A stretch of 64,000 nt of DNA from Oscillatoria princeps RMCB-10 (GTDB taxonomy: Bacteria; Cyanobacteriota; Cyanobacteriia; Cyanobacteriales; Oscillatoriaceae): NCBI GenBank assembly GCA_019359235.1, contig JAHHHT010000036.1:24245-88244 (forward strand). Reading direction: 5' to 3'. Shown here in pieces: positions 8,033 through 64,000 of the stretch. How positions within the stretch are numbered: position 1 is the stretch's first letter; every line of letters begins with the position of its first letter. The position numbers and the translations under genes are program-made. The notes under the pieces were generated by a model that was not told the DNA's origin, made no database searches, and saw only the letters and a program-made list of their open reading frames with translations.

Positions 8033-8690
8033 ATAAATCTCTCGGAAAAGCCGAGAATTTTTATAAACCCGCCCCTGCTCTAGCAGTTCTAAATGATTTG
8101 TGCGAGTCTCTCTTTTCTTTGCTTGGCGCTCTACCCAAGGGGCGAGCCGCTAGCGCGTCTATGGCGTCTTGGCGGTTTATTAAAAAAAATAATACTCACT
8201 AGCAATCTCTCGGAGAAGCCGGGGAGATTTACAAACCGGCCCCTACCACAAGGGTTCACCCCGAGGGGCGGGTTAGCTAGCAATGTGTCGGGGAAGCTGA
8301 GGAGATTTATAGCAGTGGACAGCTCAGTAATGGACAAGGCCGGAACGCTGCCCTTACAAAGCCGCTGTAAGCGCTCCGCACTTCCGTAGATTGGAACAAC
8401 CAAGATGCCTGTCCTGCGAGGTATATCCGCAGCCAGTTAGGTTAGGACGTAGGACAGGCGTCTCGCCTGTCCCTATCCCTACTAGCAAGTGAGATGCCCT
8501 GTCCTTAACTGACTGTCCCTTGCTATATATCCGCAGGGACTGCGTTTGGCCTGCCCTCAATGTCTAATGTCCTAACCAATTTGGCTAGTGCTATATAAAC
8601 CGGCCCCTGCCACAAGGGTTCGCCCGCAGGGGCCGGTTCGCGAGAAATCTCTCGGGGAAGCGGAGGAGATTGATCAACCCGCCCCTACAG
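8033..8690. repeat. cluster of three copies of a composite hairpin repeat (AAATCTCTCGGrGAAGCsGrGGAGATT + ATAAACCsGCCCCTrC)
   Basis: Copies lie at 8033-8088, 8203-8325 and 8590-8690. Each carries two perfect inverted repeats, for example aaccggcccctgccacaagggttcgcccgcaggggccggtt. Related ATAAACCCGCCCC elements lie at 56740-56830 and 58985-59140. Confidence 0.7.
8436..8520. repeat. GGACAGGCGAGACGCCTGTCC-type palindromic repeat
   Basis: ggacaggcgtctcgcctgtccctatccctactagcaagtgagatgccctgtcc. Copies lie at 32283-32330, 38100-38200, 43900-43985 and 51838-51985. A derivative lies inside a coding sequence at about 40290-40350. Confidence 0.75.
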
Positions 8691-33049: not shown

Positions 33050-33900
33050 TGCCGGTTGTGTGTGACAGAAATTTTCGCAAAAATTGCACAAATTTCTGGA
33101 TTTATGCTAACCTAAGGATAATGGAAAAGGTGCGGCAATATCAGGTCACTAATGGGCCACATTCCATCAACTTCCTTCCCCGACAATCGCCTCGCATTCC
33201 CGTGGTATTCCCCTTGTTCCCAGCATCTGTAGGGTGCGTTCCGCGTGAGTGTACTCCTTATTTGTGTGCGTAAATTGATAAGGCGGAACGCACCCCCCGG
33301 TTGCGGTGCGTTCCGCGTGCGAGCCGGCACCATTCTGCGTGCGAGAATGGATTACGCGGAACGCACCCTACTTTCTACAGCTAGTTCCCCGGCGATTAGC
33401 CAGGTTCCTGGCGATTGGAAAGATGTTGTTGGCGCTCTCCGTGAGGGGTTAGACCTACAGCTAGTTCCTCCGAGATTAGCTAGGTTCCTGGCGATTGGAA
33501 AGATGTTGTTGGCGTTCTCCCTGAGGGGTTAGACGTTCTCTCTGGGAAGTAAAGAACGGCGTTGCATTGGCGAAGCGAAATTTCGGGCGCAGTCGTAAAG
33601 ATCCGCGCCGCCAATGCTTCGCCCCTACATCGGATCTTGTGTAGGGGCGAAGCATGAGCGCGACTGTTTCTGCAATCGGTGAAAAGATTACATCCGCTCA
33701 TGCTTCGCCCTTCCCCCTAGCGCTAGCTACATATAACCTTTAAAAAACCAAGCCAAAAAGGGGGTATAGGGTGGGTAAGACCCTACATCAATTCGCCAAC
33801 AGCTTCTTTCCAATCGCCGGAGAACTAGCAAAATCGCCTGGGAACTAGCTGTAACAGCTGAATATGCAACGCCATCCTCAATGCGCTCAAATGCGCTCAT
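33050..33900. repeat. non-coding repeat island (TAGGGTGCGTTCCGC hairpins, 2 x ~75-bp tandem unit, GGGGCGAAGCATGAGCG hairpins)
   Basis: 33225-33370 carries inverted gtagggtgcgttccgc/gcggaacgcaccctac units. 33360-33540 carries two tandem copies of ctacagctagttcc..gattagc.aggttcctggcgattggaaagatgttgttggcg.tctcc.tgaggggttagac. 33590-33720 carries cgaagcatgagcg palindromes also found at 62290-62430. Confidence 0.75.
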
Positions 33901-36284
33901 GCAAACCACCGGCGAATTAACTCGACCTGGAAGCGGAAACCGTCACCGGCATGTTCAATGAGTTCGCGGCGCAAAAGCAGGTTGAGGGTGCTGTCGAGGC
34001 TGTCGGGAAACTGGCGGGAGAGAAATTGCCGGCTGGCTGTTGCGCGTTCCCCCTGTGCGGCGATGCGGCGCAATACGGCTAACCCACCGGCATCTATTTG
34101 GTTGCGTTCGATGTCGGAGAAAAAGAAACTGCCACTTTCTAAAGCACGCGGCACTGCAGCTTCTATATCGGCCAAGGTGGCAAACCGGCGCACCGAGGGA
34201 TCTTGCTCGTTTTTGAGAATCACAATCTCGTTGCAGAGGAGTTGCACCAAAAAGGGGTGATGGCGGGTTAAATCTAGAACTCGCTGAACCGCATCGGGTT
34301 CATAGCGCAGGGTAAAATCTTTGATGGGGCGCTCTATCAGCTGACGCGCTTCGGGTTCTCTCAGGTAGCTGATATGCACGACTTGCACGTTGATCAGGTA
34401 GCTCGCCCAGCGCTGAAATTCCTCTATCGTGTGGGAGCCGGCTAGCAGCACTTTGAAGCGGGGGCGGTGCTGGATTAAGTGGCGCAGCATTCCCAAAATG
34501 CGCTCTTCATCAAAGCGTCCTTTCCTGATGGCGCTGTCTAAAGCCTCGAATTCATCCAAGGCAAGCAGGGCGGTATTTTGTTCGAGTGTCTTTTCGACCT
34601 GATCTAGCCATTCGTCGAAGCCGGTGAAGGGATCTGCTGCTAGGGTTTCGCGGGGGAGGGGCGGCAGATTCAATTCGCTTTTTCGCTTGGCTGAGTTGAT
34701 CATGCCTTTAGCGAGGTTGTAGAGAAAACCTGCCGGGTCACTCGCCTGTGATGCCGGTCCTTGCAAGTCCACAAACATGGGGATGATACTGTTGGGGAGC
34801 AGGCGTCCGAGGTTGTTGAGAAGGGAGGTTTTGCCCATGCGCCGCTGACCGTAGAGTAGCAAAGGGGGGCGACGCCGGTCTAGCAGTAATTGCTCGATGC
34901 GCTTGCCGATCTCAGTGCCGCTGATATCAGCGGGTTTAACAAAGATTTGCTGCTGCTCATTCAGGGGAATGCCAGTGATGTAGGGGTTGTCAATCTCTTG
35001 GCGGAGTTCAGCTTCTTTTGCCAGTTCGGACACACGCTCGGCAAGAATTTGATGCCAGCGGAGGGCGATGGGCTGAAACCGAACCGCGTATTTGTCGCTG
35101 CTGCGGGTTAAGTCCTGCAACTTAACATATAAATGAGTTGCAACAGCGCTGAGCGCTAGACGCTGGTTATAAGCACTTTCCTGATTGAGAGCAGCGTCTG
35201 CATCCTCGCTGGTGCCACTGAAGATGCGCAGCACTGCGCGGGCTGGGCTTTGCAGTTCGCTAACAACCAGAGTGCGGTGAGCGTTACGGATGGCTTCCAC
35301 ATCCGAACAGCGTTCTAAACTCCATGCGTCCAGTTCAATTTGTGTCGGCTGTGCCGCCCAGCGCTGCCGGCTGGCGATCAGGTATTCGATGGCAGCTTTT
35401 CCCTCAGTTGGGTTGCGCTCCATCACTAAGAGGAGGTGCTTGTCCAAGTCATATAGGGGAATGCGCTGCCACTTATACCAAAAGGCAGAATGCCAGCGCA
35501 ACAGACTGGGTTGAGTGCCTGTACGTTTTTTGTCCAGTTCATACAGGAGGATATTCCATACGGCTAGGAAGGGATAGAGTACCGCTGGCAGCCACAAGTT
35601 TACAGTTACTGCCACGCCCGACGCCACGCCGAACGCCACGCCGAACGCCACGCCCCACACCACGCCCCACACCACGCCCCACACCACGCCGAACGCCACG
35701 CCGAACGCCACGCCCAACGCCACGCCCCACGCCACGCCGAACGCCACGCCGAACGCCACGCCGAACGCCACGCCCAACGCCACGCCCCACGCCACGTCCG
35801 ACGCCACGCCCCACGCCACGCCCCACGCCACGCCCGACACCACGCCCAACGCCACGCCCACCCCCACGCCCCACGCCACGCCCGACACTACGCCCAACGC
35901 CACGCCCAACTCCACGCCCAACGTCACGCCCCCCGCCACGCCCCCCGCCACGGCCCACGCCACACCCCACGCCAGGGCAGGAAAAATTTTGTCAGCTGAC
36001 TCGCCTAAGCCCCACAGTACCAATCCGAGAAGTGAGTTAACTAAGATAGGCGAGAGTAGATATCCTTGGAACAGCAGCCGCCACACAGCGGGGTTCCGCC
36101 AGCGCCCCTGTCTCATCAACAAAATCAGAGAGGAGTCAGGCTTCAAATTGGGGTGAATCCTGGTTAGGTGATTGCGGAAAGCTGTGGGGCGGAAGAAAAC
36201 CCAGAACAGCAGTTGCAGCGTGCCCAGAATTAGGTTGGGGTGCTGCTTAGGTGCGTGGGTGTAGGCGTTGCGCGGGACGTTCAT
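33897..36284 (-). CDS. three-domain protein: N-terminal glycine-zipper (GxxxG-repeat) membrane domain, conserved middle domain and C-terminal AAA-like (NPYITG...GKTSLL) ATPase
   Basis: 795 aa. Residues ~100-230 read ...GVAWGVALGVAFGVAFGVAFGVAWGV...GVVWGVVWGVVWGV... Then comes a middle domain shared with the 494-aa paralog. The C-terminal ATPase has NPYITGIPL, Walker A LLLYGQRRMGKTSLL and Walker B LALDEFEALD. Confidence 0.85.
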   Translation of the reverse strand: MNVPRNAYTHAPKQHPNLILGTLQLLFWVFFRPTAFRNHLTRIHPNLKPDSSLILLMRQGRWRNPAVWRLLFQGYLLSPILVNSLLGLVLWGLGESADKIFPALAWGVAWAVAGGVAGGVTLGVELGVALGVVSGVAWGVGVGVALGVVSGVAWGVAWGVASDVAWGVALGVAFGVAFGVAFGVAWGVALGVAFGVAFGVVWGVVWGVVWGVAFGVAFGVASGVAVTVNLWLPAVLYPFLAVWNILLYELDKKRTGTQPSLLRWHSAFWYKWQRIPLYDLDKHLLLVMERNPTEGKAAIEYLIASRQRWAAQPTQIELDAWSLERCSDVEAIRNAHRTLVVSELQSPARAVLRIFSGTSEDADAALNQESAYNQRLALSAVATHLYVKLQDLTRSSDKYAVRFQPIALRWHQILAERVSELAKEAELRQEIDNPYITGIPLNEQQQIFVKPADISGTEIGKRIEQLLLDRRRPPLLLYGQRRMGKTSLLNNLGRLLPNSIIPMFVDLQGPASQASDPAGFLYNLAKGMINSAKRKSELNLPPLPRETLAADPFTGFDEWLDQVEKTLEQNTALLALDEFEALDSAIRKGRFDEERILGMLRHLIQHRPRFKVLLAGSHTIEEFQRWASYLINVQVVHISYLREPEARQLIERPIKDFTLRYEPDAVQRVLDLTRHHPFLVQLLCNEIVILKNEQDPSVRRFATLADIEAAVPRALESGSFFFSDIERNQIDAGGLAVLRRIAAQGERATASRQFLSRQFPDSLDSTLNLLLRRELIEHAGDGFRFQVELIRRWFA
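35611..35973 (-). repeat. intragenic 12-nt minisatellite (about 30 copies of GCCACGCCSMAC) encoding the GV(A/V)(W/F) glycine-zipper units
   Basis: Near-perfect tandem 12-mers gccacgccgaac/gccacgccccac/gccacgcccaac lie on the plus strand inside the 795-aa gene. A more degenerate version lies at about 38950-39500 inside the 494-aa paralog. Confidence 0.9.
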
Positions 36285-36300
36285 GCTAATTCTTTACCTG

Positions 36301-37392
36301 TCACTCCAACAAATGTTTGAAGGGCTGTATCTGCTGTAACCCTTCTTTGCGCCAGCCGTCTCCAGTTTGCCCATGTTCAAAACTAACCCATCGCTCTTGA
36401 CAGAGGATTTGCACCAGAAGTGGCCATCGTCCGCTTTGGGTCAAAATCCACTCTACATCCTCATCTGGGAAGGTCATCGGCGAACCGGCAATCAACTCAC
36501 GCGCCTCTGCCTCTGTCAGCGGCCCCAAAGTCGCGCTATATCCGAAAATGTTGAAAAAGGGAGAACTGTGCCCGGTGTTGTGAGCCAGTTCAACCGGCGA
36601 TTCCGGCGCTGCCAGCACAAACGCCAGATTTCCACCGGCATAATTGGTTGCCCAAGATCGCAAGCACTCCCAGAACCCATCATCTAATTCTGGACAGCGT
36701 TGCAGTGCGACGCCTATCTCATCCAGCAGGATAACTGTGGGCGAGTGCAGCTTGTCGCCAACCGCATCCATGAAGCGATCCAAATCGCAGGGGTTGGGCA
36801 CCGGCACACCCAGGCACTCTAATATATAGCGCAGCAGCCCCTCCCGGCTGTGCCGGCGGGTATCTTGGAAGTCTGCGAAAATCCAGCGATAGCGTTCTGG
36901 ATGCGGCAGCCAGTCGGACTTTTGGCCAGGGCGCAACTCTGCCGGTGGGGTGGTGGTGATGTTTTTCAGGTAGTGCAGCAGGGAAGTCTTGCCGGTGCGC
37001 TTCTTGCCGATAATGGCGGCGTTTTGCAGCGGGTGGCGTTTCAGCAAGCCGAAAATGCGTTGAAGTTCGTAGTTGCGCCCAAAGAAGTGGCGAGGGTGGG
37101 TGATGGGGTTGCCGGTGATGAAGGGCGAGAGTTCCTCAATGGGTGCCGGTGGAGGTTGTGGATCTTCCTCTTCTTTACAGGCGATTTCTTGCCAGTCAAA
37201 CCCCAGTTTCTTGCTGAGTTCTACAAAATTCAGATAATCAACGGGTTGGCCATTGAGGAAGTTCTTGACGGTAGACAGAGATGGTTCTACTGCGTCAGCC
37301 AAAGCTTGCTGGCTGGGATAGCCGTTACGCTTGAGGGCCAATTTTACTTTATTGATGTACTCTGGGGCAACCCTGATCGACCGCGACATCAC
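36301..37392 (-). CDS. XRE-type HTH domain fused to AAA-like ATPase (paralog of the ATPase domain of the downstream 795-aa gene)
   Basis: 363 aa; N-terminal HTH QQALADAVEPSLSTVKNFLNGQPVDYLNFVELSKKLG, then SPFITGNPITHPRHFFGR...AIIGKKRTGKTSLLHYL (Walker A) and VILLDEIG (Walker B). The C-terminal WPLLVQILCQE parallels HPFLVQLLCNE in the 795-aa protein. The stop lies 17 nt before the next start. Confidence 0.85.
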   Translation of the reverse strand: MMSRSIRVAPEYINKVKLALKRNGYPSQQALADAVEPSLSTVKNFLNGQPVDYLNFVELSKKLGFDWQEIACKEEEDPQPPPAPIEELSPFITGNPITHPRHFFGRNYELQRIFGLLKRHPLQNAAIIGKKRTGKTSLLHYLKNITTTPPAELRPGQKSDWLPHPERYRWIFADFQDTRRHSREGLLRYILECLGVPVPNPCDLDRFMDAVGDKLHSPTVILLDEIGVALQRCPELDDGFWECLRSWATNYAGGNLAFVLAAPESPVELAHNTGHSSPFFNIFGYSATLGPLTEAEARELIAGSPMTFPDEDVEWILTQSGRWPLLVQILCQERWVSFEHGQTGDGWRKEGLQQIQPFKHLLE

Positions 37393-37545
37393 TGTTCCCA
37401 GGAAGGACTATCCGATTATAGAGCTTTTTTCCAGCCCAACCACAAGTCATCCCTAAGTCATCTCAAAGTCACCTGTTTCCCACCCCGCATCTCAACCTGC
37501 GCCAGGTTTAGATGGAATTGTAGAGTTCAAACCGACTAAAACGCC

Positions 37546-37866
37546 ATGTTGAATGAAACCCAAAACACCAACCAGACGTTACCCTCTACTTCTGAACCTG
37601 ATGGCGCTGTTCTGGACATGGAGCGAGAGTTCATGGAAGAACGCTTTCGTCAAGCTCGTCTCAGCTTCAACCTGACTCTCGGACTGACAGCAGTGAGTGC
37701 TTTCATCAGTGTTGTGGGTGTCGGACTTTTGTTTGCGGGGAAAGTTCCAGAAGGAAGCGTCACGACAGCTGGGGGGTTGAGTTCAAATCTTGTCAGCGTG
37801 CGCTTATTAAGGCTGACTAAGGAAACCAATGACCGGCTGGACAAAATGGCTCACGAGAGAATGTAG
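37546..37866 (+). CDS. small hypothetical protein with one predicted transmembrane helix
   Basis: 106-aa ORF divergent from the HTH-ATPase gene. It has a hydrophobic segment LTLGLTAVSAFISVVGVGLLFAG and is followed by GAAACCCGGTTTC palindromes. The call is tentative. Confidence 0.3.
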   Translation: MLNETQNTNQTLPSTSEPDGAVLDMEREFMEERFRQARLSFNLTLGLTAVSAFISVVGVGLLFAGKVPEGSVTTAGGLSSNLVSVRLLRLTKETNDRLDKMAHERM

Positions 37867-38290
37867 GGTGGGTTCCGCGCTATCTATTATCGCACATAAT
37901 GGGTTGGGTGAGAAACCGGGTTTCTTGAAGAAACCCGGTTTATTGGGGGCAGGGGGGTGGGTTCCGCCTTATGGATTTCCGCACACAAATCAGGGGTGCG
38001 GTCAGGCGGAACCCACCCTACTTACTATTGTAACCTGTATCGCGTGCCGGTGGCAAGAAAGCCGATTATTATAGCAATAGACAGTCAGTTTAGGACACTG
38101 GGACACGAGATACAAGGTATAGGCGTAGGGCAGGCGTCTCGCCTGCCCTTAAGGTCTCTGGGACAGGCGAGACGCCTGTCCTACGTCCTAACCTAAGTGG
38201 CTGCTGCTATATAGATTTTAGGAGGCAGAGCCTCCTTATTGGCGCTCCCAACCTTGGCGTCCTTGGCGTCTTGGCGGTTCCTCATTAATC
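37861..38290. repeat. intergenic cluster of dispersed repeats (GGGTGGGTTCCGC hairpin pair, GAAACCCGGTTTC palindromes, GGACAGGCG palindromes, CTTGGCG heptamers)
   Basis: Inverted gtagggtgggttccgc (37865) pairs with ggcggaacccaccctac (38005). The other elements are agaaaccgggtttcttgaagaaacccggttt (37921), gggcaggcgtctcgcctgccc / ggacaggcgagacgcctgtcc (38130-38190) and ccttggcgtccttggcgtcttggcggtt (38250). Confidence 0.8.
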
Positions 38291-38317
38291 CCAAATCACT
38301 CCCAAATTTCCTGCCAC

Positions 38318-39802
38318 TCATTCAGCGCCTGTGATGTGGGGGCTGCCGGCTTGTTGTTCAACTTCTGCCGCCAGTTCGCGGACACAACCGGCTACAATGT
38401 CATACCAGCGAAGGGCAATGGGGTAAAAACGAAGGGCGTCTTTATCGCCACAGGCGGTTAACTCCCGCAAGAAGTTATCCAGATTCTGCGCGACAGCGCT
38501 GAGGGCTAGCAGCCGGTTAAAGGCACTCTCCTGACTCACACCGGCATCTACTTCTTGGCTAATCTGGCCAAAGCTGATCAGCCAAATACCGGCAGGGCTT
38601 TCTAAATCACCGGCACCCAATTTTTGGTGTGCGTTACTGATATCTCGCACGCCGGCACAGTTTTCTAAACTCCTGGCGTCTATTTCAATCTGCGCCGCCA
38701 GCGCCGCCCAGCGCTGCCGGCTGGATTTCAGGTAGTTAATTGCGGCTTTGGCTTCATCGGGATTGCGCTCCAGTATCAAAATCAGGTGCTTGTCTAATTT
38801 AGGGAAAGGCAAAAACTGCCACTCATGCCAGAATGCAGAGTGCCGGTGCAACAAACTGAATTGACTCCCTGCAAATCGTTTGTCCAGTTGATAGAGGAGG
38901 ATATTCCACACTGCTAACAGAGGATAAAATACCACCGGCAGCCAATAGTTGACAGACACTCCCAGAGCGAACGCCACCCCCGACGCCACCCCCGACGACA
39001 GGCCAAATGCTAGACCCAAGGTGACAATCGACGCCAAGCGCCACCCGACGCGCCACGCGATGTCGGGCGAGACGCCGGGAACCACGCCCGACACCACGCC
39101 CAACACCACGCCCAAGGTGACGCCGGACATCACGCCCAACACCACGCCCAAGGCAAGACCGGATGCCAAACTGGACACCAGACCGGAGGCCACGTGAAAC
39201 GCGACGCCCAGCCCGACGCCAAACACCACGCCCAATCCGACGCCCCACCCCACACTCCGCTTGGCGCTAAACCCCGGACTCAAGGTGACGCCCAGGACTG
39301 CGCCCGACGCCGCGCCCAACCCGACGCCCCACCCGACGCCCCACGCGAACCCCAACGCCAAATTGAGCGCCACGCCCAGCGCCGCAGTCAGCCCGACGCC
39401 CAAGGTGACAGCTAGGGCCACGCCTGAGGCCACACCCCACTGCACGCCCGACGCCACCCACGATGTCAGCCCCCACCGCACGCCCGACGCCACGCGCCAG
39501 AAAATGATTTCTTTTGACTCGCCCAGTACCGACAGCACTAAACCCAGGATTGAAAATGCCAGGAAAGGTAAGATCAAATATTCCTGTATTAGCAGTCGCC
39601 ACAAAGCGCAGTTGCGCCACCGCAAACGGGTGCCCTGTTGCCCATTGGGGGTTAAGGCGGGGTCAATGCGGGTGAGGTGATTGCGCCATGCTGAGGGGCG
39701 GAAGAAAAGCCAGAACAGCAGTTGCAAACTGCCCAGAATAATATTGGGGTGCTGTTCGGGCGCATCTGTGTAGCTGTTGGGTGGAACAGTGGGAGAGGTC
39801 AT
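38318..39802 (-). CDS. paralog of the 795-aa gene with glycine-zipper membrane domain and middle domain but no ATPase domain
   Basis: 494 aa. The N-terminal 95 aa are highly similar (NIILGSLQLLFWLFFRPSAWRNHLTRI vs NLILGTLQLLFWVFFRPTAFRNHLTRI). The GxxxG-rich region is degenerate. The middle domain is conserved (WLPVVFYPLLAVWNILLYQLDKR...). The protein ends at ...PHITGAE, exactly where the ATPase starts in the paralog (NPYITGIPL). Confidence 0.8.
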   Translation of the reverse strand: MTSPTVPPNSYTDAPEQHPNIILGSLQLLFWLFFRPSAWRNHLTRIDPALTPNGQQGTRLRWRNCALWRLLIQEYLILPFLAFSILGLVLSVLGESKEIIFWRVASGVRWGLTSWVASGVQWGVASGVALAVTLGVGLTAALGVALNLALGFAWGVGWGVGLGAASGAVLGVTLSPGFSAKRSVGWGVGLGVVFGVGLGVAFHVASGLVSSLASGLALGVVLGVMSGVTLGVVLGVVSGVVPGVSPDIAWRVGWRLASIVTLGLAFGLSSGVASGVAFALGVSVNYWLPVVFYPLLAVWNILLYQLDKRFAGSQFSLLHRHSAFWHEWQFLPFPKLDKHLILILERNPDEAKAAINYLKSSRQRWAALAAQIEIDARSLENCAGVRDISNAHQKLGAGDLESPAGIWLISFGQISQEVDAGVSQESAFNRLLALSAVAQNLDNFLRELTACGDKDALRFYPIALRWYDIVAGCVRELAAEVEQQAGSPHITGAE

Positions 39803-39914
39803 TTCTCTTCTGGTTGATTCACCTTAATAATGAACCGCCAAGAGGGTAGGGTGCGTTCCGCTAAGCGGAACGCACCCTACTCAATTTTAAAGGAGGGAAA
39901 GGGAGAAAGGGCTG

Positions 39915-41738
39915 CTAAGCGCTGACAAAGGAAACGGCGACGCGAAATCCGAAGCGGTTATTGCGAATTTCCGGCACTACTCTGCAGCGGAAAGCGGAAC
40001 GGCAATCCCTGGGGTTGCTGAACCAAGAACCCCCGCGCAGCAACCGGCGATATTGATTTCCACCGGCATCCCAAACACCCCCATCAGCTAGCGCACCTGT
40101 GTAATTATCATGCCACGGATCGGCGCACCACTCCCAGACATTCCCGTGGGTGTCGTACAAACCAAAAGTGTTGGCTGGAAAACTCCCCACATCCGCTGTC
40201 TGTTTGCTATAGATTCCTTTGGGTTCAGAAGCGTAAATATAGTGACCGTGATAATTAGCTAATTCAGTCGTAACTGTCTCGCCAAAGTGGAAAGGTGTAG
40301 TGCAGGCGTCCTCGCCTGTACCTATTTTATAGGCGTCCTCGCCCGCACACGCGCGACAGGCGTATTCCCATTCCGCCTCGCTGGGTAAGCGGTAGTTGCG
40401 CCCGGTTGCTTGGGACAGTCGCGCACAAAATTCGGCAGCCTCGTTCCAGGATACATTCTCCACCGGCCTGTTTGCGCCTTTGAAATAAGACGGATCGGGA
40501 TTTAAATCCAGGTACACCTTGGGTAAAGCTGCGACAGCTTTCCACTGCGCCTGAGTTATGGGATATTTCCCCATAAAAAAGGGTTGCACTTTTACCAGGT
40601 GCTGCGGGCTTTCCTCATTATATCGCCCTGACTCAGTTTTTGGGGAACCCATCAGGAAAGTTCCCCCCGGAATTGACACCATTTCCAGGTTCAACCCGCC
40701 TCCCAAGTCATGGGCAAAGTATTCCGCTTGCCGGCGCGTGCGGTTGATTTCTCGCCCGTGCGCGTCTACCGTGATTGCGTCGAAGGCAAAAAACTGCAAG
40801 GGTGTTTTGCCTGAGGGGGGAGAGGTGCTAACCGAAATGGGCAATCCCGACGTGACGAATCCAATCCCGACAAAACCGGCTGCTTTAAAAAGTTGCCGGC
40901 GCGTTGGGGAATCCTCTTTCATCAGGGAGGAAACAGCTTGCAGCGCTTCCACTGCAGACGGGTAGCGCAGGCGAGAGTCACAGCGCACCATTGTGTCTAA
41001 AATCTTTGCCAGCTGGGGGCTAACTTGCACTTTGTTGCGCCAGATAATGTCACCCGTCTGGGGATTTTCTGGCAATCGCCGGGGAAAGATGCCGGTGAGC
41101 GCTTGTATTGCAGTCATTCCCAGCGCGTAAACATCGCTGCTAAACTGGGGTTTGCCCTTCGCTTGCTCACCCGGCATGTATCCGGGGGTGCCAATCCCAA
41201 CGGTCAAACTCGTCTGAGCTGGCGCATTTGCCACTTGGGTGCAGACTTGCTTAATTGCGGCAAAGTCTATCAAGACGATTTTACCATCTTGGCGGCGTCG
41301 GATTAAGTTTGCCGGTTTGATATCGCGGTGGATGACACCTTCTTTATGCGCGTGAGAAAGGACTGTCAGCACATCCAGCAAAAAGGCAATCGTCCGTTCT
41401 TCAGTCCACCGGCATCCCGGTTTGATTTCCGCAGACAGGTTCTCTCCTTCTATAAATTCTCGCACGAGATAGAACTCTTGATTCTCCTCGAAGTGAGCCA
41501 AAAATCCGGGAATTTGGTCGTGTTCGCCCAATTTCTGGAGGAGTTTAGCTTCCGTGTCGAATAGGGTTCTGGCAATCTCCAACGCGGACAGATTGTTGGA
41601 CAGGGGTTTGAGCTGTTTGACGACGCACGCAGGACTATCTGGTAACTGGGTGTCTGAGGCGAGGAAAGTTGACCCAAATCCTCCGCCTCCCAAGTGTTTG
41701 ACGATCTTATAGCGCCCCGCAAGGGTTGTTCCCAACAT
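39915..41738 (-). CDS. Ser/Thr protein kinase fused to C-terminal FGE-sulfatase (formylglycine-generating-enzyme-like) domain
   Basis: 607 aa; kinase subdomains GGGGFGSTF...VVKQL, HRDIKPANL, DFAAIK. The C-terminal FGE fold has RLPSEAEWEYACRA, HGNVWEWCADPWH and RGGSWFSNPRDCRSAFR. Confidence 0.9.
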   Translation of the reverse strand: MLGTTLAGRYKIVKHLGGGGFGSTFLASDTQLPDSPACVVKQLKPLSNNLSALEIARTLFDTEAKLLQKLGEHDQIPGFLAHFEENQEFYLVREFIEGENLSAEIKPGCRWTEERTIAFLLDVLTVLSHAHKEGVIHRDIKPANLIRRRQDGKIVLIDFAAIKQVCTQVANAPAQTSLTVGIGTPGYMPGEQAKGKPQFSSDVYALGMTAIQALTGIFPRRLPENPQTGDIIWRNKVQVSPQLAKILDTMVRCDSRLRYPSAVEALQAVSSLMKEDSPTRRQLFKAAGFVGIGFVTSGLPISVSTSPPSGKTPLQFFAFDAITVDAHGREINRTRRQAEYFAHDLGGGLNLEMVSIPGGTFLMGSPKTESGRYNEESPQHLVKVQPFFMGKYPITQAQWKAVAALPKVYLDLNPDPSYFKGANRPVENVSWNEAAEFCARLSQATGRNYRLPSEAEWEYACRACAGEDAYKIGTGEDACTTPFHFGETVTTELANYHGHYIYASEPKGIYSKQTADVGSFPANTFGLYDTHGNVWEWCADPWHDNYTGALADGGVWDAGGNQYRRLLRGGSWFSNPRDCRSAFRCRVVPEIRNNRFGFRVAVSFVSA

Positions 41739-42019: not shown

Positions 42020-43873
42020 TTAAGGAGTCCTCGCCAAAGAAAAGGCTACGCGAAAACCGCAGTTATTCTTGCGATGGTCTGGCCCAACCCCGCTACGGTA
42101 AGCCGAACGGCAACGCCAGGGTATGTTCTCCCAAGAAGCTCCAGGCGCCACAAAATGTTTTAGATCGGCTTCCCAGACACTCCCATCAGACGGCGCACCA
42201 ATATAATTACCGTGCCACGGATCGGCGCACAATTCCCAGACATTCCCGTGCATCTCGTATAGCCCAAAGGCGTTCGGCGGAAACCTGCCCACATCTGTTG
42301 TCCCTCCGTTATTGTGTAAATAGTTAGCCAAATCGGGGGTAATCGTCTCGCCGAAGTGGAATGGAGTTGTGGTTCCTGCGCGACAGGCGTATTCCCACTC
42401 CGCCTCGCTGGGGAGTCGGTAGTTGCGCCCGGTTGCTTGGAAAAGTCGGGCACAAAATTCCACCATCTCGTTCCAGGATACTTGCTCCACCGGCCTATTT
42501 GCGCCTTTGAAATAAGAAGGTTCGGGATTTAAGTCGCGGCTGACTTTGGGTAAAGAGGCGACAGCTTTCCACTGCGCCTGAGTTACAGTATATTTGCCCA
42601 TAAAAAAGGGTTTCACTGTTACCCAGTGCTGTGGTTTTTCACGGTTTTCGTCGTCTTCGCTTGGCGGGGAACCCATCAGAAAGGTTCCCCCCGGAATCGA
42701 CACCATTTCTAAAATCACTCCGTCTCCTACGTCATGGGGAAAGAATTCAGCTTGCTGGCGCGTGCGGTTGATTTCTCGCCCCCCCGCGTCTACTGTGATT
42801 ACATCGAAGGTAAAAGTTTGCAAAGGGGAAACCTCAACAATTGTGGAAGAGGGAGAAGTCGTGAAAACCTGACGGGCGAATACCGACGCCACAAATCCCC
42901 CACCGGCAAATCCCGCCAGCTTGAAAACTTGCCGGCGCGTCAGGGGGGAATTCGGTTTTGTCAAAGAAGAAACCGCTTGCAGCGCCTCAGATGCTGACGA
43001 GTAGCGCTGGCGGTAATCATAGCGCACCATTTTATCTAAAATGTTTGCCAACTTCGGACTAACTTGCGCCCTGTTGCGCCAGAGAATTTCACCCGTCTGC
43101 GGATCTTCTGGCAATTGCCTCGGGGGGATGCCGGTGAGGGCTTGAATTGCCGTGATTCCCAGGGCGTAAACATCGCTGCTCAACTGGGGTTTGCCCTGAG
43201 CTTGCTCACTCGGCATGTATCCGGGGGTGCCAATCCCAACTGTCAAACTCGTCTGACTCTGCTGCGCATTGGGCACCTGCGTGCTGACTTGCTTAATTGC
43301 CCCAAAGTCTATCAAGATGATTTTCCCATCTTGGCGGCGTCGGATTAAGTTTGCCGGTTTGATATCGCGGTGGATGACACCCTCCTGATGGGCGTAAGAA
43401 AGGGCTGTCAGCACCTCCAGCAAAAAGGCAATCACCCGTTCTTCTGCCCACTTGCATCCCGGTTTGATTTCCTCGCACAGACTGTCGCCCTCGATGAATT
43501 GCTGCACTAGATAGAATTCTTGATTTTCCTCAAAGTGAGCCAAAAGGCTGGGAATTTGGTCGTGTTCGCCCAATTTCTGGAGAACCCTAGCTTCGGTGTT
43601 GAATAACCGTCTGGCAATCTTCAGGGTAGACGGATCGTTCGACTGGGGTTTGAGCTGTTTAACGACGCACACAGGATTGTCTGGTAGCTGCGTGTCTGAG
43701 GCTAGGAAAGTTTGGCCAAATCCCCCGCCTCCCAGATATTTGACGATTTTATAGTGCCTCTTAAGGGTTCGTCCCAACATGGCTTTGATGCAGTGTCTGG
43801 CAAGTTTTTCTCCAGCATACAGCCTTTTGCCACAAATGTCAATCCCCTTTTTGGCAAAAGTTTTCACCCTCAC
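42020..43873 (-). CDS. Ser/Thr protein kinase::FGE-sulfatase fusion, tandem paralog (likely start at internal Met, coordinate 43780)
   Basis: 617-aa ORF. The sequence from MLGRTLKRHYKIVKYLGGGGFGQTF onward is collinear with the downstream paralog (about 70% identity by eye). The 31 aa before it are probably not translated. Confidence 0.9.
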   Translation of the reverse strand: MRVKTFAKKGIDICGKRLYAGEKLARHCIKAMLGRTLKRHYKIVKYLGGGGFGQTFLASDTQLPDNPVCVVKQLKPQSNDPSTLKIARRLFNTEARVLQKLGEHDQIPSLLAHFEENQEFYLVQQFIEGDSLCEEIKPGCKWAEERVIAFLLEVLTALSYAHQEGVIHRDIKPANLIRRRQDGKIILIDFGAIKQVSTQVPNAQQSQTSLTVGIGTPGYMPSEQAQGKPQLSSDVYALGITAIQALTGIPPRQLPEDPQTGEILWRNRAQVSPKLANILDKMVRYDYRQRYSSASEALQAVSSLTKPNSPLTRRQVFKLAGFAGGGFVASVFARQVFTTSPSSTIVEVSPLQTFTFDVITVDAGGREINRTRQQAEFFPHDVGDGVILEMVSIPGGTFLMGSPPSEDDENREKPQHWVTVKPFFMGKYTVTQAQWKAVASLPKVSRDLNPEPSYFKGANRPVEQVSWNEMVEFCARLFQATGRNYRLPSEAEWEYACRAGTTTPFHFGETITPDLANYLHNNGGTTDVGRFPPNAFGLYEMHGNVWELCADPWHGNYIGAPSDGSVWEADLKHFVAPGASWENIPWRCRSAYRSGVGPDHRKNNCGFRVAFSLARTP

Positions 43874-44005: not shown

Positions 44006-45649
44006 CTACAGGCTCTTAATGCTCAAATCCACATCTGCCGGGGTAAAATATAACTGGGCGCTGCCCTCGCTCAAGGCGGCAATGGCATCCTGTTTCCGCA
44101 AAGTATTAAAAATCGCCAGCTTGTCCGATTTTGACATGCCATTACCCAACCCGTCAAAGAACGCCCTGACGCGAATTGCCTCCGCCTCACCGGCAGTTAG
44201 CGCTTCGGTTTGCGCGTGCTCCCGGCGCAAGTCCAGCAGCTGTCCCTTCTGCCGCTCAACTTCAATCTCCCCCTCTATCTCCTTAAGTTTAACATCATTA
44301 TCGCCCTCCTGTTTCTGCAGCCGGTTCAGCCGGTTCGTCGTCTCCTGAATAATCTCTATCAAAATCCGCTGCGTGTCCGGATCTTTGCAAGCGACTGAGC
44401 GCACTTCCACCGCATGAAGCGCCACCCCACGATCGGCATAAAAGCTGTCCTCCACCCCCAGCACCGCTTGTCTGACTATGGCATTAAACCCCGCCAGAAA
44501 TCTTTCCAGCGATACCTGCGATACGGACTGAATAATCAGGCTGCGGACGTGGGCGCAAATCGCGCCGCTGGTATCGTCTGTCGCCTGCACCATCGCCGCC
44601 ACATCCACAATCTGCCAGAAGAAGGTCAAGCCGATAATTAATTCTACATTATCCTGCGTTCGCGTTTCAAATTCGTACCACATAAACTTGGGTCGCCCGT
44701 CAATGTGGGTGAAGATGAGATTTTTCTCGTCTTTGTGCAGCCCGCTGGCCCACCGGAATTCCACCAGCTCCTCATACGGCTGCAAAAAGAAAGACCGTTC
44801 GGCGTCAGTTCCCTGTTTTATGCTATAATCGCCAAAGCGGTCTTTGACGACGACCGTTTCGTGATTCTCCAGCAAGATGCGCCGGCGCACTTCTACGATT
44901 TTTTGATTCGCCTCCGGAGAGAAAACCTGCGGTTCTGTTATCAATTCTAGGGTGCCGGTTTGCGTGTCTCGCACCAGCACTGCCGTGTGTTCGTCAATAT
45001 TGACCCCTTCCCCGATGCTGCCTAAAATCTCTTCCGCCGGATTGAGGTAGAAACTCCTCTCGCCCCGCTCAACGCGAATCATGCCGGTGCTTTTATCAAT
45101 CACCTTGACATATTGATTTTGCTGCAGTAAAATAGGCTTGCGGAGTTCGACAATTTCCTGATTGGCAGCTGGAATGAACACTTGGGGTTGGGAAATCAGC
45201 TGCAGCTGGCCGGTGGAAATATCTCGCACCAGCACCGCTGTTTGCTCATCAATATTGACTCCCTCCCGCACCGGCTCCAAAATCTCTTCAGTGGGGTTGA
45301 GACAGACACTGCGATCGCCCCTTTCCACCCGAATCGCGCCGGTGCGCTTGTCAATCAGCCGGATGTACTGGTTGCTCTTCAGGGGAATGGCGGACCGCTG
45401 TTCCAGGATTTCCTCACTCGCCGCCGGGAAGAACAGCTTGGGGCCAAATTCGTTGCGCAACTCGCCGGTGAGGGTGTCGCGCAGGCGCAGGTAGTCCGTA
45501 GGGCCAAGGGTTTTGGCCTTGCGGCGCTGCACCCGCCACCAGGGCTGGGAGTAAAACACGGCGGGTCCATTCACTGTCCACCGGCGCGTGAAGCCCTCGA
45601 CGATCAGCTGTTCGTCTTCTTTGAGATAATAGATCCAGGGCAAAAACAT
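44006..45649 (-). CDS. major-vault-protein (MVP) repeat / SPFH (band-7)-like domain protein
   Basis: 547 aa. It has three tandem repeats of about 55 aa (QYIRLIDKRTGAIRVERGDRSVCLNPTEEILE.. / QYVKVIDKSTGMIRVERGERSFYLNPAEEILG.. / ETVVVKDRFGDYSIKQG..ERSFFLQPYEEL), as in MVP shoulder repeats. These are followed by an SPFH-like core and a coiled-coil tail. Confidence 0.65.
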   Translation of the reverse strand: MFLPWIYYLKEDEQLIVEGFTRRWTVNGPAVFYSQPWWRVQRRKAKTLGPTDYLRLRDTLTGELRNEFGPKLFFPAASEEILEQRSAIPLKSNQYIRLIDKRTGAIRVERGDRSVCLNPTEEILEPVREGVNIDEQTAVLVRDISTGQLQLISQPQVFIPAANQEIVELRKPILLQQNQYVKVIDKSTGMIRVERGERSFYLNPAEEILGSIGEGVNIDEHTAVLVRDTQTGTLELITEPQVFSPEANQKIVEVRRRILLENHETVVVKDRFGDYSIKQGTDAERSFFLQPYEELVEFRWASGLHKDEKNLIFTHIDGRPKFMWYEFETRTQDNVELIIGLTFFWQIVDVAAMVQATDDTSGAICAHVRSLIIQSVSQVSLERFLAGFNAIVRQAVLGVEDSFYADRGVALHAVEVRSVACKDPDTQRILIEIIQETTNRLNRLQKQEGDNDVKLKEIEGEIEVERQKGQLLDLRREHAQTEALTAGEAEAIRVRAFFDGLGNGMSKSDKLAIFNTLRKQDAIAALSEGSAQLYFTPADVDLSIKSL

Positions 45650-61929: not shown

Positions 61930-62910
61930 TGTAATTTCTATGCTAATAAGACTAGGCAAATTAGGTTAGTTTCCAGGCGATAAGCTAGTTTCCGGGCGAT
62001 TGGAAATCGCGGCTATACAAACGAAGTCCGCCTGCGCGGACTTAAGAGCTAAAAGTAGGGTGCGTTCCGCGTGCTTCTGACTGCTACTTCTAGGGAATAC
62101 TGTGAACGCGGAACGCACCACCGGCACTCGTTGGGGCGGGTTTATTCAGATGTTGAGTTGTGTGGCTTTGAGTTCGGGCGAATCCGCCCCCACCGGCATT
62201 ATATCACGGAGGTGCCGGTGCGTGCGAGATGCCGGCTGCGCGCGGTGCCGGGCGGGTTTTTTGGAGGTTGTCTGTGGGTGGCACAGGTGTTAGGGCGAAG
62301 CATGAGCGTTAGCGAAGCGGCTGCGTCAGCAGCTATATAATCCTTCCTTGGGTGGCAAAAATAGTCGCGCTCATGCTTCGCCCCTAAGCTGGAATTCCTC
62401 TAGGGGCGAAGCATGAGAGTGAGGAGCTTTCCTGGGCATTCCTGGTGCCGGGCGGGTTTATTCAGATGTTGAGTTGTGTGGCTTTGAGTTCGGGCAAATC
62501 CGCCCCCACCGGCATTATATCACGGAGGTGCCGGTGCGTGCTTTGATGCCGGGTTTCGTGGGGTGGGGGCGGGTTTATTCAGATGTTGAGTTGTGGGGCA
62601 AATATTTCGGGCAAATCCTCCCCTACAGGCATTCTATCACAGAGGTGCCGGTGCATACAAGACACCGGCACTCGCGGGGCGCTAAAAGTAGGGTGCGTTC
62701 CGCGTGCTTCTGACTTCTACTTCTAGGGAATACTCTGAAGGCGGAACGCACCCCCGGCACTCGTAGGGGCGGGTTTATTCAGATGTTGCGTTGTGTGGCA
62801 AAGATTTCGGGCGAACCCGCCCCTACAGGCATTCGTGGGGGCGCTGGGAACACGGTGCGTTCCGCAGAAGCGCGACTTCTACTTCTGCGGAATCCTCTCA
62901 AGGCGGAACG
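61930..62910. repeat. repeat island: four copies of a ~95-bp composite MITE-like unit (GGGCGGGTTTATTCAGATGTTGAGTTGTGTGGC...GAATCCGCCCC + CACCGGCA..TGCCGGTG), TAGGGTGCGTTCCGC hairpin pairs and GGGGCGAAGCATGAGCG palindromes
   Basis: Units start at about 62136, 62451, 62567 and 62768. Inverted gtagggtgcgttccgc / gcggaacgcaccctac pairs lie at 62055-62125, 62690-62760 and 62850-62920. cgaagcatgagcg palindromes lie at 62290-62430. The interval has no credible ORF. Confidence 0.75.
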
Positions 62911-62914
62911 CACC

Positions 62915-64000
62915 CTACTCTTCGAGCAAGCGCTTCAGTTCCTCATCCGTGAAGGGATTATTCCCCGCTTTCAGGGCGTCAACCCAGCGCTGCCTTTGCG
63001 ATTTTTCCTTCTTATAAAAATCCTTACTCCCAGAAGGTAGATTGTCAATCCAAGCGATGTATGCCTGAAAGTCCTCAATCGCGCCTTTTGGGTTGCCGGT
63101 GAGCGCCCGGGCAATGCCGCGACTGTCGCGATACCTTTCATTATAAGGAGCGAGGGCTACGGCTTTCTCGCAGGCAAACATCACGTCTTTGGCGTGCCGG
63201 TGCAAACTGCCGTACCTGCAGAGAGTATTCCAAGACTCCGCATAAATCTCAAAGTTTGGGTCGAGCTTTTGGGCTTGTGCGTAAGCGGCGATGGCTTCCC
63301 TCACCTTGCCTTCCTTGACAAGCTCTTCTCCCTTTTTCACTATAACGGTTGCCGGCTCAACGTTAGGGTCGAGTTGCAATGCCTTCTGAAATTCCGCCAC
63401 CGCAGCTTCAATATTGCCCTCTTCGGCAAGCTGTTCGCCCTTCTTAATTCGTTCGGAAGCTTCTGCTAATTGCTTGGCTTTGGTTTCTGGATTGAGGGGT
63501 AAGCTGGGATTCCACTTTAAGGCGGTGCGGAAAGTAGCAACTGCTCCATCAACATTGCCTCCTCTCGCTTCCTCCTCCCCTTCCTTAACCAGAAATGGCG
63601 CGGCGTCCCGCCGATTGGATTGGGTTTGGCACACTTCTAGTTTTTCCAAGTCTTTGGGATGGGTGATAAGGTAATCGTTGAGCCAGTTGCAACCCCTCAC
63701 CAGCAGTTCGTCTAAGCTGTAAACCCGCCACACCCGGGCTGTCATATCAGAGGAGGCGGTGACGATGCGCTTTCCGTCGGGGCTGAAACTGGCGCTGTAG
63801 ACAGGACTCTGATGCCCTTTTAGCTCGTACAGCTGCTTGCCGGTGCTGTCCCACACCCGGGCTGTATTGTCAAAGGAGGCGGTGACGATGCGCTTTCCGT
63901 CGGGGCTGAAACTGGCGCTGTTGACAGCATCCTGATGCCCTTTTAGCTCGTACAGCTGCTTGCCGGTGCTGTCCCACACCCGGGCTGTTCTGTCAGAGGA
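62915..64000 (-). CDS. WD40-repeat protein with C-terminal TPR-like domain, partial (N-terminus beyond window end)
   Basis: Repeated ...DSTGKQLYELKGHQDAVNSASFSPDGKRIVTASFDNTARVW units are present. The reading frame stays open to position 64000. The C-terminal half has TPR-like AxxxFxxALxxNP repeats. Confidence 0.8.
   Translation of the reverse strand, partial: SSDRTARVWDSTGKQLYELKGHQDAVNSASFSPDGKRIVTASFDNTARVWDSTGKQLYELKGHQSPVYSASFSPDGKRIVTASSDMTARVWRVYSLDELLVRGCNWLNDYLITHPKDLEKLEVCQTQSNRRDAAPFLVKEGEEEARGGNVDGAVATFRTALKWNPSLPLNPETKAKQLAEASERIKKGEQLAEEGNIEAAVAEFQKALQLDPNVEPATVIVKKGEELVKEGKVREAIAAYAQAQKLDPNFEIYAESWNTLCRYGSLHRHAKDVMFACEKAVALAPYNERYRDSRGIARALTGNPKGAIEDFQAYIAWIDNLPSGSKDFYKKEKSQRQRWVDALKAGNNPFTDEELKRLLEE

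Follow-up and report, generated by a model that had tools for sequence, protein, structure and literature searches.

In the 64,000-nucleotide (nt) stretch of the Oscillatoria princeps RMCB-10 genome analyzed here (the window: contig JAHHHT010000036.1, positions 24,245 to 88,244), the minus-strand open reading frame (ORF) at 38318-39802 encodes a protein of 494 amino acids (aa), hereafter the short form, which is a paralog of the 795-aa product of a nearby gene (33897-36284, the long form, a membrane-anchored STAND-like ATPase of cyanobacteria) but lacks its ATPase. Comparison with orthologs from related cyanobacteria firmly indicates that the short form is a functional, selectively maintained paralog rather than a decaying fragment, that the ATPase was lost before at least four lineages similar to Oscillatoria PCC 10802 diverged, and that the protein has evolved under purifying selection since the truncation up to about codon 483, with the tail beyond that point free to vary.

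The two proteins form a single collinear BLASTP alignment that pairs residues 5-492 of the short form with residues 2-438 of the long form at 51% identity (E=8e-121). The short protein terminates in ...EVEQQAGSPHITGAE followed by the stop codon, and its counterpart in the long form, ...ELRQEIDNPYITG, lies just N-terminal to the Pfam ATPase matches; viewed over a longer stretch, the short form closes with ...AAEVEQQAGSPHITGAE and the stop codon, whereas the long form instead reads ...ELRQEIDNPYITGIPL... and runs into the P-loop ATPase with the Walker A motif GQRRMGKTS. The stop codon falls six residues inside the ATPase module (SPHITGAE and stop versus NPYITG), and the P-Y-I-x-G motif and subsequent ATPase motifs, including Walker A, are near-invariant in an alignment of 89 family sequences. 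An earlier note on this DNA had described the short form as collinear with the 795-aa paralog and ending at the start of the ATPase, a description that both BLASTP and the family alignment bear out. The same note had proposed a search for ATPase remnants downstream of the short form: none were found, the best match of the ATPase half of the long form and of the nearby helix-turn-helix (HTH) ATPase in a six-frame tblastn search of 37393-38420 being at the chance level (E=0.4, 17.7 bits), and no same-strand ATPase ORF directly follows the short form in the window or in Oscillatoria sp. PCC 10802.

The N-terminal motif block of the long-form family, YT[DN]APEQHPNLILGSLQLLFW..F.P.A.RNH, is present in the short form as YTDAPEQHPNIILGSLQLLFWLFFRPSAWRNH, the Gly/Val/Ala-rich repetitive membrane region of the family is present as well, and the motifs HSAFWDEWQ and QRWAAQA.QIELDA of the cytosolic middle domain appear as HSAFWHEWQ and QRWAALAAQIEIDA. 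The P-loop ATPase (Walker A GQRRMGKTS, Walker B LDEFE) and the C-terminal FQVELIRRWF tail are not found in the short form, which has no Pfam ATPase match and for which no model in Pfam, NCBIfam or PADLOC gave a match. In the AlphaFold2 (AF2) model, the N-terminal and middle domains are confidently helical: codons 1-95 have a predicted local distance difference test score (pLDDT) of ~90 and codons 286-483 a pLDDT >90, and the ratios of nonsynonymous to synonymous differences per site (pN/pS) in comparison with PCC 10802 are 0.24 and 0.19, respectively. Residues 96-285, which consist of 21% Gly and 20% Val and contain 23 GxxxG motifs, are modeled by AF2 with low confidence and show a ratio of nonsynonymous to synonymous substitution rates (dN/dS) of 0.22. 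Of the 81 columns with a conservation of 90% or more in the long forms, the short form keeps 68, compared with 69-81 in the long forms themselves, and four of its 13 deviations are at the junction.

Intact ORFs orthologous to the short form, 489-498 aa long and with ~90-93% nucleotide identity, were identified by database and genome scans in four lineages: the window itself (494 aa), a Logan contig and the metagenome-assembled genome (MAG) 'uncultured Oscillatoria sp.' (L001 and L003, 494 aa), a JGI contig and the MAG Oscillatoria sp. Prado101 (L002 and L004, 489 aa), and Oscillatoria sp. PCC 10802 (L005, 498 aa). These orthologs are so far limited to one genus-level clade, and a metagenome scan for further close orthologs added none. 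The pairwise NG86 dN/dS values are 0.21-0.34. The short forms of the window and L003 differ by 48.8 synonymous and 48.2 nonsynonymous changes (binomial P=9e-8 against neutrality), and those of the window and L005 by 62.3 and 40.7, respectively (P=6e-14), whereas a simulated neutral copy that accumulated 100 substitutions retained an open frame in only ~2% of the runs. Constraint is apparent on each branch, the lineage-private changes giving a ratio of ~0.19-0.29, and, in comparison with PCC 10802, the dN/dS of the short form (0.23) is close to those of the flanking genes for a protein similar to the Major Vault Protein (MVP; 0.20) and for a methyltransferase (0.20). Given that dS among the four short-form sequences is 0.14-0.23, they do not represent one recently spread allele. 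Neither neutral evolution nor a broken frame, the signs expected of a pseudogene, was seen in the orthologs from the four lineages.

The constraint stops at about codon 483, and the last 11 codons have a dN/dS of 0.77. The orthologs accordingly end differently, in QAGSPHITGAE, ETGSPQIAGAE, SL and QAGSPHMLPDTQRPL, each followed by the stop codon. The vestige SP[HQ]I[TA]G in these tails is the counterpart of the family motif SPYIIG; therefore, the ancestor of the short forms carried the ATPase, and the loss is older than the split of the lineages. In a neighbor-joining tree built from 293 shared columns, the short forms make up a monophyletic clade (100% bootstrap) that branches deeply, a sister relationship with the local long form receiving a bootstrap support of only 22%. 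The comparison with orthologous loci called for in the earlier note thus revealed that the truncated form is shared by related genomes. Of the possibilities raised there, the loss of the ATPase is well founded, considering that nearly all of several hundred relatives carry it and that the vestige SPHITG was kept, but the idea of decay finds no support. The alternative of variation in architecture rather than decay holds insofar as the short form is conserved, although this conservation has so far been seen only within one genus-level clade; the finding is a sound, if modest, example of how architecture varies in an uncharacterized and probably conflict-related cyanobacterial system.

A phmmer search of 1.84 billion cluster representatives detected 687 relatives at E<=1e-3, most of them 890-960 aa long and containing the ATPase. 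Among the others, P0075 (585 aa) is a standalone module that stops at the same junction (...AAAEARDRG and stop), with no ATPase afterwards, and its start shares 4 nt with the end of the preceding gene, the product of which is an 875-aa NACHT protein (L023 69-4450 and L024, JGI metagenome contigs) that has N-terminal transmembrane (TM) helices and a long, glycine-zipper-rich C-terminal region with 34 GxxxG motifs. P0032 (457 aa, JGI metagenome, contig of 27280 nt) has precisely lost the whole ATPase in frame, with the C-terminal tail kept (...LNLLLQRELIEDSGCGYCFQVELIRRWFA...), and is, judging by its sequence, a second type of ATPase-less architecture. In P0122 (L025), this junction divides the gene in two, and the ATPase follows downstream. 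These events at one junction imply that it is a true domain boundary and that the module can stand alone. P0132 is a split or frameshifted metagenome version, and P0182, which is followed by a 373-aa ORF, is possibly another. Decayed versions that map to the junction include L010 (Tolypothrix tenuis PCC 7101), which is frameshifted and lacks the ATPase, and L016 and L017, which carry internal deletions. In [Scytonema hofmanni] UTEX 2349 (L013 11652-13345), the ATPase of the long form is interrupted between query-alignment residues 628 and 623 by an insertion of ~1.7 kb, which may be a mobile element.

How the short form would operate without an ATPase of its own is a separate question, to which we consider the following answer reasonably probable: after an old ATPase loss, it became a functional paralog whose membrane module works with a nucleoside triphosphatase (NTPase) in trans, probably the full-length paralog. 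The membrane and middle module would stand as a unit of its own and probably form the end of the system that acts on the membrane, as an effector or adaptor; it is usually fused to an NTPase switch but could also pair with a separately encoded NTPase, the likeliest partner of the short form being the full-length paralog two genes away. The short and long forms might co-assemble via the shared glycine-zipper helices and/or the middle domain, in which case the short form could be an extra pore or membrane subunit, that is, a co-effector, or else a regulator of the assembly of the long form. Supply in trans by some NTPase is plausible, with P0075 and the NACHT gene that it overlaps by 4 nt as a case in point; the partnership of the short form with an NTPase is a mechanism that we infer rather than demonstrate.

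Two observations keep a role independent of an NTPase in play, namely, the deletion of the ATPase genes in Prado101 and the tight constraint on the short form. In the Prado101 MAG, the short form is intact and its branch shows 22 synonymous versus 13 nonsynonymous private changes, but the HTH-ATPase gene, the small gene for a protein with the CyanoTRADDas_TM domain and nearly all of the long form are gone; what is left is a 157-nt piece of the P-loop region of the long form, 94% identical to the window and with a stop codon inside. Prado101 is a MAG, the deletion may be of any age, and further copies of the family could be present elsewhere in the genome. The site of the remnant (L004 1738-2300), with the intact short form upstream, has palindromic repeats on its flanks. 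It can be proposed that the short form acts without any NTPase, as an autonomous membrane protein, perhaps serving the upstream MVP-like gene and the two genes that combine a Ser/Thr kinase with an FGE-sulfatase domain (kinase-FGE), all of which are on its strand and may be co-transcribed with it, an alternative that seems to us unlikely, if credible. Besides its survival in Prado101, a distinct role is suggested by the middle domain, for which pN/pS is 0.19 in the short form versus 1.08 in the long form (Fisher P=0.0013), and the short form lies 112 nt downstream of a kinase-FGE gene on the same strand, an order that is kept in L001, L003 and L005, so that the two genes are possibly co-transcribed, as far as their arrangement goes. 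Synteny among such close relatives is weak evidence, however; a hairpin repeat separates the kinase-FGE gene from the short form, and elsewhere the module is nearly always fused to, or located beside, an NTPase.

The other domains of the long form, compared between the window and PCC 10802, have pN/pS values of 0.45 (N-terminus) and 0.17 (ATPase), so that its middle domain differs significantly from its own ATPase (P=0.0005) as well; these values rest on a single pairwise comparison (window versus L005 13233-15596). Of the two paralogs, the truncated copy is, by these measures, the conservative one. A more elaborate scheme, which we put forward tentatively and consider rather improbable, is a division of labor in an uncharacterized cyanobacterial membrane conflict system, where the constrained short copy would be the executioner or scaffold and the long copy a diversifying sensor and switch that recruits the short copy via the glycine zippers. 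If this were the case, the short form would be a bacterial, membrane-embedded counterpart of effector-only NLR partners, and the split would have arisen a second time, independently, in the P0075-NACHT pair.

Within the long form, the Gly/Val repeat shows a pN/pS of ~4 in comparison with PCC 10802, with doubtful alignment in this region; the ATPase shares 97.5% identity with its PCC 10802 counterpart, and the N-terminal half is fast-evolving. The dS values of the long form and the HTH-ATPase (0.06-0.08) are below those of the flanking genes (0.15-0.20), which hints at a recent exchange of the cassette. Gene conversion between the short and long copies, with a donor cassette, was considered and rejected because the two are 69% identical at the nucleotide level and the longest word that they share is 23 nt. 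In Pfam searches, the long form matches AAA_22 (residues 471-622; 32.3 bits versus the cut-off of 27), ATPase_2 (461-620) and nSTAND1 (537-716), the last one at 22.7 bits, below the Pfam cut-off of 27.1, compared with 29.3 bits for the relative P0012, which makes the assignment of the long form to the STAND class a borderline one. A sequence search for solved structures related to the ATPase returned only spurious matches to neuroserpin.

The earlier note had also suggested that the ATPase is supplied in trans by the neighboring HTH-ATPase. In a specific form of this idea, the HTH-ATPase would substitute for the lost domain by docking on the middle domain of the short form. The HTH-ATPase carries no membrane module, its ATPase domain opens with the same type of motif (SPFITGNPI), and its gene lies close to the short form both in the window and in PCC 10802, where the order is the same as in the window: kinase-FGE, short form, CyanoTRADDas_TM (on the opposite strand), HTH-ATPase and long form. 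Nevertheless, in 14 of the 16 informative genome loci from other cyanobacteria, including Microseira, Kamptonema, Nostoc, Scytonema, Coleofasciculus, Aerosakkonema and Pelatocladus, a gene for an HTH-ATPase ~70% identical to that of the window precedes a long form in the same orientation, and a second, short-form copy was not detected in any of the 16; the pair is also found in the metagenome loci L026, L027 and L029, and a divergent CyanoTRADDas_TM gene is detectable at several of the genome loci. Because it is paired with long forms in loci where no short form was detected, the HTH-ATPase can be assigned to an ancestral long-form cassette that predates the truncation, and the gene arrangement argues against its being a stand-in dedicated to the lost domain. 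Moreover, the CyanoTRADDas_TM gene, in opposite orientation, lies between the HTH-ATPase and the short form; the HTH-ATPase shares only 27% identity with the ATPase of the long form, over 93 aa, and is deleted in Prado101, where the short form persists. The suggestion is therefore not specifically supported, and we deem it quite improbable. The view of the HTH-ATPase as the ATPase detached from the short form was rejected since the HTH-ATPases are an old, separately conserved family. The spacer between the HTH-ATPase and the long form is 17 nt in the window and ~0.5-2 kb elsewhere. In the comparison of the HTH-ATPase genes of the window and PCC 10802 (36301-37392 versus L005 12125-13216), the N-terminal HTH region has a pN/pS of ~1.1 (15 nonsynonymous and 4 synonymous differences) and the ATPase part 0.57.

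It is very unlikely that a recent deletion of the ATPase turned the short gene into a pseudogene fragment that is now decaying: the family does include decayed members, such as the frameshifted L010, L016 and L017 with their deletions, L013 with its insertion and L025, which is split at the same boundary, but the short form has retained the conserved family motifs and its frame in four lineages, evolves at dN/dS values similar to those of flanking genes and is constrained on each terminal branch. A sequencing or assembly frameshift, or a split gene with the ATPase in an adjacent ORF, for which there are precedents in metagenome contigs (L025/P0122, P0132 and possibly P0182), is practically negligible as an explanation because independent assemblies (the draft genome of an isolate, two MAGs and one contig each from JGI and Logan) have the truncation at the same junction, with stops within ~11 codons of each other, and there is no ATPase-like coding potential downstream in any frame.

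The closest relatives with annotation are cyanobacterial proteins of ~750-960 aa labeled 'AAA family ATPase' or 'nSTAND1 domain-containing NTPase', all uncharacterized (for example, P0003 from Microcoleus sp. MON1_C1 and P0076 from Calothrix sp. NIES-2098), in which the N-terminal block, the Gly/Val region and the middle domain are homologous to the short form (39-55% identity, 100% query coverage); compared with these proteins, the entire ATPase and the C-terminal winged-helix-like tail, ~365 aa altogether, are missing from the short form. Bacterial STAND/NLR-like defense NTPases (NACHT, Avs and the nSTAND clades) contain N-terminal effector domains, some of which are transmembrane (PMC13581612; PMC8195603; PMC7159879). 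The long form resembles them in that a membrane or effector-like module precedes the P-loop NTPase and in its location amid genes of the conflict-system type (CyanoTRADDas_TM, kinase-FGE and MVP-like), but differs in the lack of a C-terminal repeat sensor and in the sub-threshold nSTAND1 match. In PADLOC-DB 2.0, the short form had no match, and the long form and the HTH-ATPase had only P-loop-level matches (E ~1e-3); literature searches turned up no description of this family or cassette. Effector-only paralogs of NLRs and inflammasome components are exemplified by the CARD-only and pyrin-only proteins encoded beside their parent genes and by plant TIR-only or truncated NLRs. Like the CARD-only and pyrin-only proteins, the short form is truncated to the N-terminal part for assembly or effector function, has the full-length gene nearby and is maintained by selection; unlike these proteins, it results from an old duplication (51% identity), the folds and kingdoms are unrelated, and a decoy or regulatory role could be assigned only by analogy. 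The likeness to P0075 and its NACHT partner consists in a standalone membrane and middle module that ends at the same junction and an NTPase that is encoded separately, whereas in the P0075 pair the partner is the upstream, overlapping gene, the membrane region is longer, and the protein belongs to another subfamily and probably to another phylum.

The family as a whole comprises several hundred clusters at 50% identity, mostly from filamentous cyanobacteria, and combines a glycine-zipper membrane module with a STAND-like ATPase and a conserved HTH-ATPase neighbor. As a single-gene observation, the short form is modest because the loss of a domain in one paralog is common. Together with the independent standalone and split cases at the same junction, however, the maintained ATPase-less paralog marks the membrane and middle module as an independent functional unit. 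The domain boundary is thereby defined for experiments, with a natural 'effector-only' construct at hand, and the pair of paralogs is usable for testing the control of membrane effectors by NTPase switches in multicellular bacteria.

Features of the short-form and long-form loci in the window
Feature	Position	Strand	Basis or remark
Long paralog, 795 aa: same membrane and middle module, STAND-like ATPase, C-terminal winged-helix-like tail	33897..36284	-	
STAND-like ATPase part of long paralog, from ~codon 431	33897-34994	-	
HTH-ATPase, 363 aa, conserved neighbor of long form	36301..37392	-	weak AAA_22, AAA_16 matches
CyanoTRADDas_TM gene, 106 aa, 2-TM	37546..37866	+	PF20712, E=1.6e-20; cyanobacterial TRADD-N-associated 2-TM domain
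Intergenic stretch of dispersed palindromic repeats	37867..38317	.	inverted repeats
Short paralog, 494 aa: membrane module and helical middle domain, without ATPase	38318..39802	-	ORF, translation, collinearity, orthologs
Short paralog, codons 484-494 and stop: unconstrained tail with vestigial ATPase motif SPHITG	38318..38353	-	variable tails
Short paralog, codons 286-483: last membrane helix and all-helical middle domain (HSAFW.EWQ, QRWAA.AAQIEIDA motifs)	38354..38947	-	
Short paralog, codons 96-285: Gly/Val/Ala-rich glycine-zipper-like membrane repeat region	38948..39517	-	composition
Short paralog, codons 1-95: conserved N-terminal region (YTDAPEQHPNIILGSLQLLFWLFFRPSAWRNH) and first hydrophobic helices	39518..39802	-	near-invariant family columns
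Ser/Thr kinase-FGE-sulfatase gene, directly upstream of short form	39915..41738	-	Pkinase, FGE-sulfatase matches

The stretch between the short form and the HTH-ATPase had been described as intergenic, packed with hairpins from 37.4 to 38.3 kb and a possible breakpoint of the ATPase deletion. In fact, 37546-37866 is coding: the CyanoTRADDas_TM gene there is oriented toward the convergent short form and away from the HTH-ATPase, and its homologs hold the same position in L005-L008, L019 and L021. The hairpins are confined to ~37867-38317 and represent two palindromic repeat families scattered over the window, with 9 and 13 intergenic copies, where <0.2 are expected by chance. In PCC 10802, the segment corresponding to 38024-38334 is absent, with ~30 nt in its place, so that the hairpin repeats are later insertions, not a deletion scar, and a breakpoint at this site is not borne out. 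Because their presence or absence differs between close relatives, the palindromic repeats behave like mobile elements of the MITE (miniature inverted-repeat transposable element) or REP (repetitive extragenic palindrome) type. The cores of the two families are GGCAGGCGTCTCGCCTGCCC and GGGTG[GC]GTTCCGC; copies of one family are located at window positions 8453, 32292, 32363, 38128-38180, 43927, 51846 and 51960, and those of the other at 33232-33368, 37866-38018, 39849-39877, 47472 and 62058-62915. A scan for promoters and terminators yielded no signal beyond the shuffled expectation.

Upstream of the short form, the window contains tandem kinase-FGE genes (39915-41738 and 42020-43873), and PCC 10802 has only one, which shares 90% identity with the 607-aa copy and 66% with the 617-aa copy. 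FGE domains, which have a C-type lectin fold, are targets of diversity-generating retroelements in cyanobacteria (PMC10907252; PMC7159879). Farther upstream, on the same strand, the gene at 44006-45649 encodes the 547-aa MVP-like protein, with weak matches to the Major Vault Protein repeat, the MVP shoulder and the SPFH/Band 7 domain, which is 93% identical in PCC 10802.

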